In this document: positions 2,131 to 28,665 of the stretch, piece by piece
How positions within the stretch are numbered: the stretch's first letter is position 1
Layout of the letters: each line of letters begins with the position of its first letter
DNA from: an uncultured Clostridia bacterium
GTDB lineage: Bacteria; Bacillota; Clostridia; TANB77; CAG-508
Length of the DNA stretch: 64,000 nucleotides
Assembly (NCBI GenBank): GCA_944391755.1
Contig: CALXUT010000012.1
Location: 9,727-73,726 of the forward strand
Reading direction: 5' to 3'
Notes under the pieces: model-generated
What the model saw: the letters and a program-made list of their open reading frames with translations, nothing else
Databases searched by the model: none
What the model was told of the DNA's origin: nothing
Program-made: the position numbers and the translations under genes

Positions 2131-2879
2131 GAAAATTATTAATAGGTTTAATAACAGTTTTATTATTTGCACTAGCAGTATATATTGTTATTTGCGGACT
2201 TTCATTTGCAGGAATAGAAATAAGTAGTGTTTCCGCAATACAAGAAGAAAATGCTAGACTAGAAAATAAGATAGAAGAAGCAAATGATTTGAAAAATATA
2301 GATTATCCACAAAATGTAACAGTATTGGAATCATCATATAAAAAATTAATGACAGAAAAAGAAAATTACGAACAAATACTTGCATTAGGTGTTGATGAAA
2401 ATGGACAGCCATTGAATAAAATACAAGAATATGAAATTGAAAAAATTTGGATTACTATGGGAAATTATGCTACAAAGCAAGGTGTTGACTTAAAACTAGA
2501 CGTTACTTCAAATAATTCAATAAGTGGCACTTATGATTTAACCTTTACTGCAACAGGAGGATATATTCAAATAATAGATTTCTTGTATGATGTTGAAAGA
2601 GATAGTACATTAGTATTTAAATTAGAAAATTTCAAAATGGTACCAGGTACAAGTACAGAAGAATTAGTTGCTACATTTGTATGTAAAGATGTAAAATTAA
2701 ATATAACAGACACATCATCTTCTACAAATGATACTACAACAACAGGAGAAAATACAAATGCAAATACAAATTCAAATAATAGCAACACAACGAATAGTAC
2801 AAACACCAATAGTACAACAACAAATACGAACAGTACAGGAAATACATCAACAACAAGCAATACAACGAATAATACATAG
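2127..2879 (+). CDS. PilO-like pilus assembly membrane protein with a Ser/Thr/Asn-rich C-terminal tail
   Basis: 250 aa with an N-terminal TM and a coiled coil. An ATGA overlap with pilM indicates translational coupling. The C-terminal ~55 aa are almost only T/S/N (TNDTTTTGENTNANTNSNNSNTTNSTNTNS...). Confidence 0.6.
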   Translation: MRKLLIGLITVLLFALAVYIVICGLSFAGIEISSVSAIQEENARLENKIEEANDLKNIDYPQNVTVLESSYKKLMTEKENYEQILALGVDENGQPLNKIQEYEIEKIWITMGNYATKQGVDLKLDVTSNNSISGTYDLTFTATGGYIQIIDFLYDVERDSTLVFKLENFKMVPGTSTEELVATFVCKDVKLNITDTSSSTNDTTTTGENTNANTNSNNSNTTNSTNTNSTTTNTNSTGNTSTTSNTTNNT

Positions 2880-2897
2880 TGTTAGAAAGGAGAAAAT

Positions 2898-3320
2898 ATG
2901 ACAAAAGTAATTATTAGAGAAACAATCATAGCACTTTTAGTATGTTTAGCAGTATTAATCATTTTGAGTGTAGTTTTATATAATTATATTCCATCTAACA
3001 AAGTAGTTCCAGAAACTGTAGAATATACGCCTAGTAGAGAAATACAAACACAACTAAATGCATCTGTAGAGGATAATTCAGATGAAATTATCATGACATA
3101 TGAAATAACAGCAACTGATTTGGATAATTTTGAAAGAACAAATGAATATAATCCAGGAAAAGTAAATCCTTTTGCAGCATATTCAGAGACACCTGATGAA
3201 GGTGATGGCAGTGGTTCTACAGGTGGTAGTGGTGGAAGTACGACTACTGGACAAGGTAATCAAACTACGGGAGGAAGCAACTCAGGAGGATCATTATGGG
3301 AGAATGGAAGTAGTAAATAA
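2898..3320 (+). CDS. Small membrane-anchored pilus-locus protein with a Gly/Ser-rich tail (function unknown)
   Basis: 140 aa with an SD (AAAGGAGAAAA), an N-terminal TM, and a C-terminal GDGSGSTGGSGGSTTTGQGNQTTGGSNSGGS stretch. Confidence 0.55.
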   Translation: MTKVIIRETIIALLVCLAVLIILSVVLYNYIPSNKVVPETVEYTPSREIQTQLNASVEDNSDEIIMTYEITATDLDNFERTNEYNPGKVNPFAAYSETPDEGDGSGSTGGSGGSTTTGQGNQTTGGSNSGGSLWENGSSK

Positions 3321-12882: not shown

Positions 12883-12911
12883 TTGACATTTATTCAAAAA
12901 TGAATTATACT
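12883..12911 (+). promoter_or_regulatory. Putative promoter of the tRNA pair
   Basis: TTGACA (12883-12888), a 17-nt spacer, then TATACT (12906-12911), about 30 nt upstream of the first tRNA. Confidence 0.6.
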
Positions 12912-12939: not shown

Positions 12940-13016
12940 GCTCCCGTAGCTCAGTTGGTCAGAGCAACCGGCTCATAACCGGTGGGTCCTAGGTTCAAGT
13001 CCTAGCGGGAGCACCA
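12940..13016 (+). tRNA. tRNA with a CAU anticodon, either elongator Met or, more likely, lysidine-type Ile2
   Basis: A 77-nt cloverleaf with acceptor gctcccg/cgggagc, anticodon arm accgg-CTCATAA-ccggt, T arm ctagg-ttcaagt-cctag, and an encoded CCA. The anticodon stem lacks the three G-C pairs of initiator tRNA. The GGCTCATAACC context resembles Bacillus tRNA-Ile2. Confidence 0.85.
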
Positions 13017-13047
13017 TTTTTTATTATAGAAATATAATAAAAAATTT

Positions 13048-13368
13048 GGACAGGTGGCCGAGTGGCTAAAGGCGGCAGACTGTATGCTTTGCTTTAAGCA
13101 GAAGTTGCAGCCTATACAAGAAATTGTATAGTGAAAACTAGGCTAATTCGGGGAAGTCTTAACAGATATAACATGATATGCTGATGATAATCCCGAGCTA
13201 GAAAGAAATTTCGAGTGTAGAGACTTTATACCTGGCATCTGAAAATGATGAAGAGAAAGTCCAGACTACAAACATTTTTATATTAATATAAAATGGTAGT
13301 GAAAACTATAGTGGTAAGAAATCTGTTCTCATATGAGTACGATGGTTCGAATCCATCCCTGTCCACCA
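13048..13368 (+). tRNA. tRNA-Tyr(GUA) interrupted by a group I intron (exons 13048-13083 and 13319-13368)
   Basis: Joining the exons gives GGACAGGUGGCCGAGUGGCUAAAGGCGGCAGACUGU|AAAUCUGUUCUCAUAUGAGUACGAUGGUUCGAAUCCAUCCCUGUCCACCA. This is a class II tRNA with a long variable arm. Its anticodon arm is almost identical to E. coli tRNA-Tyr (GCAGACUGUAAAUCUGC). Confidence 0.9.
13084..13318 (+). ncRNA. Group I intron (small, ORF-less, IC3-like) inserted between anticodon positions U35 and A36
   Basis: The 5' exon ends in U and the intron ends in G. An internal GCAG (~13099-13102) can pair with exon CUGU to give the U.G wobble of P1. Other candidate elements are AAUUCGGGG...CCCGA (P4), GAAA-GAAA-UUUC (P6 with a GAAA loop), and GUGUAGAGACU...AGUCCAGACUAC (J6/7-P7-like). 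These resemble the Azoarcus tRNA-Ile intron core strings CAAAUUCGGCGAAAC and GGUGUAGAGACUAGACGG. Confidence 0.8.
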
Positions 13369-13369
13369 T

Positions 13370-13403
13370 AAAGCCAAAAGAAAAAATCTTTTGGCTTTTA
13401 TTT
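13370..13403 (+). terminator. Rho-independent terminator after tRNA-Tyr
   Basis: aagccaaaaga-aaaaa-tcttttggctt followed by ttatttt. Confidence 0.7.
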
Positions 13404-13422
13404 TATTTAAAAGGAGATAATA

Positions 13423-13803
13423 ATGATAGACTATACGAATAAGCAAAAGGGAAATTGTGGACTTGGAATTGCAATTGGATATTTTTGCACAAATGGATAT
13501 ATTGTATCAGTACCTCTAAATGATACTCAAGATTATGATTTAATAGTAGATAAATATCAAAAAATCAGTAAAATCCAAGTAAAATATACATCATGTAAAA
13601 CAAAATATGATGTTTATCAAGTTGCATTAAAAAGTTGCGGAGGAACAAAAGGAGCAACATATAAAACTGTAAAAGACACTGAAATTGATTATTTGTTTAT
13701 AGCAACTGATAACCTAGATACGTATTTAATTCCTAAAAATGAGATTTCTAATAAAAGCACATTAAATTTATGCAATAAATATTTGAAATATAAAATTAAT
13801 TGA
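13423..13803 (+). CDS. Free-standing PD-(D/E)XK endonuclease of the I-Ssp6803I / 'group I intron endonuclease' type (PDDEXK_5-like)
   Basis: 126 aa. GNCGLGIAIGYFCTNGYIVSVPLNDTQDYDLIVDKYQKISKIQVKYTS fits the family pattern G..GE......G..V..P.gD...yDLi.d.....rvQVK (D...D-x12-QVK catalytic core). It has its own SD (AAAGGAGATAATAATG) and lies 55 nt downstream of the intron-containing tRNA. Confidence 0.65.
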   Translation: MIDYTNKQKGNCGLGIAIGYFCTNGYIVSVPLNDTQDYDLIVDKYQKISKIQVKYTSCKTKYDVYQVALKSCGGTKGATYKTVKDTEIDYLFIATDNLDTYLIPKNEISNKSTLNLCNKYLKYKIN

Positions 13804-28589: not shown

Positions 28590-28665
28590 GCCACTATAGC
28601 TCAGTTGGTAGAGCGACGGATTCGTAACCCGTAGGTCAGCAGTTCGATTCTGCTTAGTGGCTCCA
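28590..28665 (+). tRNA. tRNA-Thr(CGU)
   Basis: Acceptor gccacta/tagtggc, anticodon arm acgga-TTCGTAA-cccgt, T arm cagca-gttcgat-tctgc region, and an encoded CCA. A TTGCTT-17-TATAAT promoter lies upstream and a terminator hairpin (tagcaag...cttgcta + T7) downstream. Confidence 0.9.

Follow-up and report, generated by a model that had tools for sequence, protein, structure and literature searches.

The window analysed here, a 64-kb stretch of DNA from an uncultured Clostridia bacterium, carries a tRNA-Tyr gene whose two exons are parted by a 235-nucleotide (nt) insert, followed by a small gene for a putative endonuclease. Joining the exons (13048-13083 and 13319-13368) gives a canonical 86-nt class II tRNA-Tyr(GTA) with CCA in ARAGORN, and the intron option of the same program places a 235-nt intron after sequence position 36, between U35 and A36, which are exactly the coordinates of an original prediction made from the DNA letters. 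That prediction had also called the insert a compact group I intron lacking an open reading frame (ORF), and on the sequence evidence presented below we conclude that it is a genuine group I intron and highly likely a functional one. In window coordinates, the locus is composed as follows:

12883-12911 (+), promoter-like site TTGACA-17-TATACT preceding the tRNA-Met/tRNA-Tyr pair (consensus scan, 11/12; a consensus match only)
12940-13016 (+), tRNA-Met(CAT) (ARAGORN; Rfam RF00005, 73.4 bits)
13048-13083 (+), tRNA-Tyr exon 1: acceptor 5′ strand, D arm, anticodon stem 5′ strand, C32-U35
13084-13318 (+), predicted group I intron, 235 nt, between U35 and A36 (RF00028 match, covariation)
13319-13368 (+), tRNA-Tyr exon 2: A36, anticodon stem 3′ strand, long variable arm, T arm, acceptor 3′ strand, CCA
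13370-13408 (+), terminator-like hairpin (13370-13398) and T run between tRNA-Tyr and the endonuclease gene (consensus scan: 12-bp stem, then TATTTTATTT)
13423-13803 (+), predicted free-standing PD-(D/E)XK endonuclease gene, 126 amino acids, with its own ribosome-binding site AAGGAG, 55 nt past the tRNA and behind the terminator-like hairpin

U13083 is the last base of the 5′ exon and G13318 the last base of the insert, as had been foreseen for an exon ending in U and an intron ending in G. The splice boundary is fixed, with no sliding, because the introns of two homologues (L002 and L015) begin with G instead of A. No ORF of at least 50 amino acids lies within 13084-13318, where overlapping frames span only 20-49 amino acids. 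Across the 64-kb window, default ARAGORN and Rfam at gathering scores both missed the split gene, the only tRNAs reported by these scans being the tRNA-Met at 12940-13016 and a tRNA-Thr at 28590-28665. With the tRNA-Tyr invisible to default tRNA finders and to the curated thresholds of Rfam, genomes of this abundant group of uncultured gut Clostridia therefore seem to have no tRNA-Tyr unless intron-aware tools are used. Weak, sub-threshold Rfam matches to rli38, SpF41 and tmRNA at 13310-13420 are accounted for by the T arm of the tRNA and by the terminator, and were rejected as separate RNAs.

Architecture and conservation of the tRNA-Tyr insert

A permissive Rfam search of 13000-13420 (421 nt) matched the group I intron model RF00028 at 13085-13283 over the whole model (1-253; 39.5 bits, E 9.3e-9; 35% GC over the match), and the divergent homologue L002 scored 44.8 bits (E 2.4e-10). 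Homologues were gathered along three routes: the genomic contexts of homologues of the downstream ORF, a scan of a genome collection with the upstream MtaB-like gene, and a metagenome scan with an exon/guide-sequence pattern, about 48 of whose 120 loci were discarded as chance matches in GC-rich coding DNA. The resulting collection comprises 76 split tRNA-Tyr loci and 52 distinct introns of 211-238 nt.

A P1-P9 structure with a P3/P7 pseudoknot was written from the window sequence and laid on a MAFFT alignment of the 52 introns. Standard pairs fill 99.5% of the 2918 cells of this alignment, and two-sided changes are found in 25 of the 57 pairs, compared with 15.7 ± 1.6 in shuffles (0/500 attain that number) and 1-7 in slid controls. 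Folding of the unspliced RNA gave z = −3.7 relative to shuffled sequence, and a homology-free minimum-free-energy fold recovers P2, P4, P5, P6a, P8 and P9. Judged by this covariation, a group I architecture is kept by compensatory evolution across a family of no fewer than 52 distinct sequences found in uncultured gut Clostridia, with the following elements:

13080-13083 (+), P1 5′ strand CUGU, the end of exon 1; U13083 provides the U of the U.G wobble at the splice site, and the partner is GCAG 13107-13110
13090-13100 (+), optional P1-loop hairpin UGC/GCA; changes GC/GC to GG/CC to GA/UC, judged by eye
13105-13110 (+), internal guide sequence; the partner of exon CUGU is GCAG 13107-13110, and UU 13105-13106 is available for P10
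13112-13131 (+), P2, 8 bp, loop GAAA 13120-13123 (GNRA throughout); two-sided changes in 7/8 pairs
13138-13142 (+), P3 5′ strand CUAGG, paired with CCUGG 13231-13235; two-sided changes in 3/5 pairs, 99.6% paired
13148-13153 with 13191-13196 (+), P4, invariant; the P4-P5 domain spans 13148-13196
13157-13158 with 13186-13187 (+), P5; two-sided changes in 1/2 pairs, a U-A/C-G/A-U pair being changed on both sides in 12/52 sequences
13163-13165 with 13181-13183 (+), P5a; 2/3 pairs covarying
13197-13199 with 13214-13216 (+), P6; P6 and P6a together show two-sided changes in 4/7 pairs
13201-13204 with 13209-13212 (+), P6a with GAAA loop; two-sided changes in 4/4 pairs
13220-13226 (+), P7 5′ strand: G, bulged A13221, GACUU; paired with AAGUCC 13257-13262, 6/6 pairs invariant, 100% paired
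13236-13250 (+), P8 CAUC/GAUG, 4 bp, 7-nt loop; two-sided changes in 2/4 pairs (C-G/U-A in 21 sequences)
13266-13318 (+), P9 three-way region; outer stem 13266-13269 with 13311-13314, 98.6% paired
13273-13276 with 13292-13295 (+), P9a hairpin; 3 covarying pairs
13297-13300 with 13305-13308 (+), P9b hairpin; 3 covarying pairs, loop an invariant GAAA

All four pairs of P1, including the U.G, are present and invariant in 52/52 sequences, as is the stretch UUGCAGC (13105-13111). The anticodon stem can stay paired, because P1 uses the anticodon-loop bases C32-U35, and a possible P10 of 2-3 bp may form between UU 13105-13106 and AA 13319-13320 of exon 2. P7 is presumed to be the guanosine-binding helix, forming a pseudoknot with P3, and its GUAGAGACU and AAGUCC motifs are common to the window intron and the seed alignment of bacterial tRNA introns. 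After P9, UAAG closes the intron with the omega-G, G13318, which is invariant in the 52 sequences. Two helices named in the original prediction were recovered as proposed: UCGGG/CCCGA is P4, and GAAA-GAAA-UUUC is the P6 hairpin, here P6a. Its pairing of an internal GCAG with exon CUGU as P1 stands for the copy at 13107-13110 and fails for a second GCAG at 13098-13101, which we rejected as a guide sequence; it is not conserved (ACCU in L002) and forms part of the optional P1-loop hairpin. This hairpin is wholly deleted in two homologues (L227 and L308), and the pair count excludes it, since MAFFT places it out of register.

The host of the window intron agrees with the predicted low-GC Firmicute. 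The GC content of the window is 28.7%, and the closest MtaB-like genes (59-77% identity) belong to metagenome-assembled genomes (MAGs) of uncultured gut Clostridia of human (Hadza, Brazil), rabbit and mouse origin, and a complete 1.55-Mb chromosome is among these relatives. In most related loci tRNA-Met lies immediately upstream of the split tRNA-Tyr. Three such genomes (L033-L035) carry an intronless tRNA-Met/tRNA-Tyr pair, and in L034 and L035 the tRNA-Tyr sequence is identical to the spliced product of 12 intron-containing loci. Because the match to the mature sequence is exact, the intron behaves as a precise presence/absence polymorphism, by gain or loss, in an otherwise unchanged gene. 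One MAG (L015, 5990-7568 and 8000-9282) differs in its layout: thymidylate synthase and dihydrofolate reductase genes separate tRNA-Met from the split tRNA-Tyr, integrase-like fragments lie downstream, and there is no endonuclease gene.

Related introns were also seen in viral sequence. The P4-P5-P4′ core string (TCGGGGAA...AATCCCGAGCTA) occurs in 115 predicted viral contigs of IMG/VR (L088-L202), and in 29 of these 115 ARAGORN, run with its intron option (-i), detects 30 tRNA genes interrupted by the core-bearing intron (for example, L091 3221-3983, L092 14212-14526, L104 7958-8250 and L129 1063-1380). Leu(UAA) is the commonest of these, and Asn, Lys, Arg, Ser, Thr, Phe and Tyr are represented as well as the suppressor-type anticodons UCA and CUA; a 2014 review knew of no phage tRNA gene with a group I intron. 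A blastn search of GenBank phages returned only matches to the tRNA-Tyr exons and to the 3′ part of an intron in dnaB of a crAss-like phage. The latter covers 13247-13324 of the window, from P8 to P9, which shares 78% identity with the 3′ part of the dnaB helicase intron of Kolpuevirus (L331, OQ198718.1, ~76471-76541), a crAss-like Bacteroides phage whose dnaB intron carries a GIY endonuclease gene.

The downstream endonuclease gene and its association with the intron

The description of the intron as ORF-less holds for the insert itself, but the intron is not alone: the gene 55 nt downstream of the tRNA, which the original prediction did not mention, encodes a 126-residue protein matching the Pfam family PF11645 (PDDEXK_5; 61.8 bits, cutoff 26.1, E 8.9e-17). 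The characterized member of this family, and the only one, is the homing endonuclease I-Ssp6803I, which recognizes a 23-bp pseudo-palindromic target in a tRNA anticodon region as a tetramer (PMC3384342). Residues D37-Y-D39-L and Q52-V-K54 of the window protein align with YDL...QVK of I-Ssp6803I, and among 34 endonuclease homologues D37, Y38, D39, L40, Q52 and K54 are invariant and V53 nearly so. A phmmer search against PDB sequences gave only a weak match to the I-Ssp6803I structure 2OST (E 0.3), so a fold search was needed; with an AlphaFold model of moderate confidence (pLDDT 68.5), 2OST is the best PDB fold match (probability 1.0, TM 0.51), at 17% identity in the fold alignment. The ratio of nonsynonymous to synonymous substitution rates (dN/dS) is about 0.2 among intact copies. 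By family match, fold and substitution pattern, the protein is a PD-(D/E)XK nuclease of the I-Ssp6803I family under purifying selection.

An endonuclease gene is present at this downstream position in 40 of the 76 intron loci. For the 65 loci found through the intron alone, its status is as follows:

intact, 31/65 loci
ended by the end of the contig, 3/65 loci
N- or C-terminal remnant, or frameshifted, up to 9/65 loci
absent with at least 600 nt of room, 17/65 loci
stretch too short to judge, 5/65 loci

The distribution of the gene among close relatives is thus patchy, and the presence of intact, degenerate and lost copies tied to the intron allele fits what a homing-endonuclease life cycle predicts. 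Identical introns are seen both with and without the gene, and the gene is found in 0/3 of the intronless loci (L033-L035). Approached from the protein, five of six look-ups led to a gene directly downstream of a split tRNA-Tyr. In the sixth, P0085 (L326 2380-2500; L327 and L328, ~2270-2360), only the last ~35 nt of tRNA-Tyr, or just CACCA, and a terminator precede the gene, and the neighbours are Bro-N, TnpV and HEPN genes. We rejected this locus as a case of an endonuclease without an intron, because the 3′ end of tRNA-Tyr is retained; it looks like one end, the far side, of a mobile element integrated into tRNA-Tyr.

Homologues with 40-53% identity are also found free-standing inside tRNA arrays, both in IMG/VR contigs and in cultured phages (L332-L349), including the T5-like Escherichia coli phage SelmaRatti (L332, MZ501103.1, 70652-71023) and the Bacillus phages BCP12 (L333, KX987999.1, 127200-127595) and BCP78. 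These phage genes are annotated as hypothetical proteins, and most lie directly upstream of tRNA-Ser(GCU). The predicted viral contig L111 (IMG/VR_UViG_3300031993_004889) brings both components together: its tRNA array (~2540-3290, minus strand; Ile, split Tyr, Gln and others) includes a tRNA-Tyr with different exons and a 205-nt intron of the window's family with the guide sequence UUGCAGC, and a homologous endonuclease gene follows ~85 nt downstream. ARAGORN did not call the split tRNA-Tyr of L111.

Other placements of the endonuclease family were noted along the way. An ORF of the family lies inside a 613-nt intron of a phage tRNA-Ser(UGA) (L172, 8003-8263, minus strand), and a weakly similar ORF (E 8e-6) stops 5 nt ahead of a split tRNA-Lys(CUU) (L143, 6288-7070); taken with the window, members of the family are thus seen within, ahead of and behind tRNA introns. 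In a further viral contig (L334, IMG/VR_UViG_3300020201_000012, 1341-1932), valid tRNA-Tyr(GTA) halves are parted after CTGT by 507 nt, at the insertion point of the window intron. That insert contains a tRNA-like segment that has a CUGUAAA anticodon arm of its own, along with an endonuclease homologue (49% identity) whose stop codon falls within the CTGTAAATC downstream; the non-coding part amounts to only ~125 nt, not enough for a ribozyme.

Possible collaborative homing and its alternatives

We consider it quite likely that the window holds a tRNA-Tyr split by a group I intron together with an endonuclease that aids mobility in some way, and the adjacent enzyme probably helps the intron to spread. 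In the mechanism that we propose, the tRNA-Met/tRNA-Tyr operon would be transcribed as a precursor in which the 235-nt ribozyme sits between U35 and A36 of tRNA-Tyr. Exogenous guanosine would attack after U13083, the omega-G at 13318 would next occupy the P7 site, and the exons would be ligated, their splice sites aligned by P1, P10 and an intact anticodon stem, as in the Anabaena and Azoarcus pre-tRNAs. At the DNA level, the downstream enzyme would, with about even odds, act as a free-standing homing endonuclease on intronless tRNA-Tyr, cutting in or near its anticodon region; a carrier would be protected because the intron interrupts the cut site, and repair of the cut allele would copy the intron and the endonuclease gene together, which amounts to collaborative (trans) homing. 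The specific claim, plausible but tentative, is of a two-part unit in which the enzyme cuts the anticodon loop of intronless tRNA-Tyr, the intron acts as the immunity element and the tRNA stays functional, on bacterial chromosomes as well as in phage tRNA arrays.

Several observations weigh against this account or its parts. The full-length RF00028 match, sought in the original prediction together with a P3-P9 core that does fold, is below the gathering score of 50, as is that of L002, and it is lost in Rfam E-value searches of batches of 19-45 kb, being seen only in searches of ~400 nt; such genes therefore stay unannotated. Williams 2020 (bioRxiv 10.1101/2020.01.27.920355) states that bacterial introns are missing from the RF00028 seed. 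P1, P4 and P7 never vary in the 52 sequences and so are uninformative on covariation, P1, at 4 bp, and P10, at 2-3 bp, are short, and self-splicing, probable as it seems, is predicted from sequence. The metagenome scan pattern fixed the exon sequence, so the host breadth of the intron is not gauged by our counts, and the intronless controls are three loci only, closely related to one another. The link between intron and endonuclease is drawn from co-occurrence only, 17-18 intron loci lack the gene, and three phage endonucleases (L339, L343 and L347) lie beside an intronless tRNA-Tyr.

These last observations bear on the possibility, a real one although we are inclined to doubt it, that the intron is genuine and the endonuclease an independent selfish gene, homing without an intron into the spacer behind tRNA-Tyr or to another tRNA-gene target, with the intron as an older resident. 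The PDDEXK_5 family appears tied to tRNA genes and does not always need an intron, because phage copies adjoin intact tRNA-Ser(GCU) or intronless tRNA-Tyr, which keeps independent homing in contention; intron loci that have no gene, even with introns identical to those that do, and the terminator-like hairpin between tRNA-Tyr and the gene point the same way. It is less readily squared with the bacterial copies, every one of which, where its context was read, adjoins a split tRNA-Tyr or a fragment of that gene, while no intronless allele has one. The sole characterized family member, moreover, cuts a tRNA anticodon region (PMC3384342), and in L111 the intron and the endonuclease travel together in a foreign tRNA-Tyr backbone.

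Doubts about the intron itself carry less weight than that about its partner. A dependence on a host protein, be it a chaperone or a maturase-like cofactor, with inefficient self-splicing of the RNA alone, would suit an AT-rich RNA with very short P1 and P10 and a sub-threshold Rfam score, but it is unlikely given the compact architecture with GNRA loops L2 and L9, as in the Azoarcus and Anabaena tRNA introns, and the lack of any maturase-like ORF in or beside the intron. The Azoarcus and Anabaena tRNA introns self-splice. With only 64 kb of the genome in view, another tRNA-Tyr gene could do the work while this copy decays with a non-splicing intron; we regard this as very improbable, since pairing is kept across the 52 variants with many compensatory changes, the catalytic core does not vary, nor do the omega-G or the U.G wobble, conservation of the exons equals that of the intronless functional alleles, and promoter-like and terminator-like sites flank the operon. 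The idea that an AT-rich spacer flanked by tRNA fragments looks like a group I intron by chance, for which the missing match at the Rfam gathering score might speak, has next to no credibility beside the E-values of the window and L002 matches and the tRNA-Tyr formed by the joined exons, and it is ruled out by covariation and by recurrence in 76 loci.

Should collaborative homing hold, this would be the first case from a cellular tRNA gene and would represent a living step on the way to intron-encoded enzymes such as I-Ssp6803I. The collaborative homing model describes how ORF-less introns and free-standing endonucleases come together, with support so far from a few phage cases in protein-coding genes, and the variants assembled here, 52 of the intron and 34 of the enzyme, form with their matching empty sites a natural and sequence-rich test system for it. 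If the split copy is the only tRNA-Tyr gene, translation in the cell would depend on a ribozyme. The endonuclease could also be a new rare cutter specific to tRNA genes.

Relation to known systems

The classical bacterial tRNA group I intron types are those of Leu(UAA), fMet, Ile(CAU) and Arg(CCU), and the original prediction was right to place the tRNA-Tyr intron outside them. The type is not new, however: Williams 2020 raised the number of tRNA intron types computationally from 4 to 21, and the seed alignment of that work includes Mba143.Tyr.4Ug. Because the window intron is inserted after the fourth anticodon-loop base (CUGU|intron...G|AAA), with U at −1, G at omega and the same guide sequence, it is by these features a member of the catalogued, non-classical Tyr.4Ug type. 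It shares with Mba143.Tyr.4Ug the host gene, the site CUGU|AAA, the U at −1, the omega G, the guide UUGCAG and the overall helices, and differs in P4 (ACGGUG, against UCGGGG in the window) and in the layouts of P6 and P9. At 75% identity over aligned positions, Mba143.Tyr.4Ug is less close than Wba81.Asp.4Ug (80%) and Tpc1.fMet.2Ug (81%), and by sequence comparison the window intron represents a distinct subfamily of the type. The catalogue itself is computational, with no splicing tests, and its text mentions no neighbouring endonuclease.

With the classical IC3 introns (Azoarcus tRNA-Ile, Anabaena and cyanobacterial tRNA-Leu(UAA), Agrobacterium tRNA-Arg), the window intron shares a length of ~200-250 nt, the lack of an ORF, a place in the anticodon loop, a P2 capped by a GNRA loop, a P9 with a GAAA hairpin and the cores AAUUCGGGGAA, GUGUAGAGACU and AAG-AGUCC. 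Those introns interrupt other tRNAs, at positions 34/35 or 36/37 rather than U35/A36, and reside in cyanobacteria and proteobacteria, whereas the window host belongs to the uncultured gut Clostridia. The window helices are AT-rich, and P7 closes with U-A (GACUU/AAGUC) where the classical introns have A-U (GACUA/UAGUC). Compared by eye, layout and motifs agree with those of the seed alignment of tRNA introns, at 72-81% identity over aligned positions, and IC3 is a candidate subgroup for the window intron.

Small nuclease genes among tRNA genes are familiar from phages. T4 SegB is a free-standing GIY-YIG homing endonuclease in a phage tRNA cluster, with no intron involved, and the PDDEXK_5 homologues of T5-like and Bacillus phages resemble it in their setting. 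In the searchable literature we came across no report in which splicing of a tRNA-Tyr group I intron was tested, no free-standing PD-(D/E)XK endonuclease paired with a tRNA intron, and descriptions of collaborative or trans homing only for phage protein-coding genes, namely F-CphI with the psbA intron of cyanophage S-PM2 (PMC3984707) and T4 mobE with the I-TevIII intron (PMC2790892). These phage systems likewise combine a group I intron that is ORF-less, or has a defunct ORF, with a free-standing endonuclease beside the interrupted gene, and the proposed logic, that the intron disrupts the target, is the same. They differ in involving protein-coding genes and HNH-type enzymes, whereas the window presents a bacterial chromosomal tRNA gene and a PD-(D/E)XK enzyme known from sequence.

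The nearest counterpart to the pairing as a whole is the tRNA-fMet intron of Synechocystis PCC 6803 with I-Ssp6803I, which likewise joins an anticodon-loop group I intron to a PF11645 PD-(D/E)XK endonuclease. The two enzymes are only distant relatives, and the endonuclease gene lies inside the Synechocystis intron, whereas in the window it stands outside, 55 nt past the 3′ end of the tRNA and behind a terminator-like hairpin.

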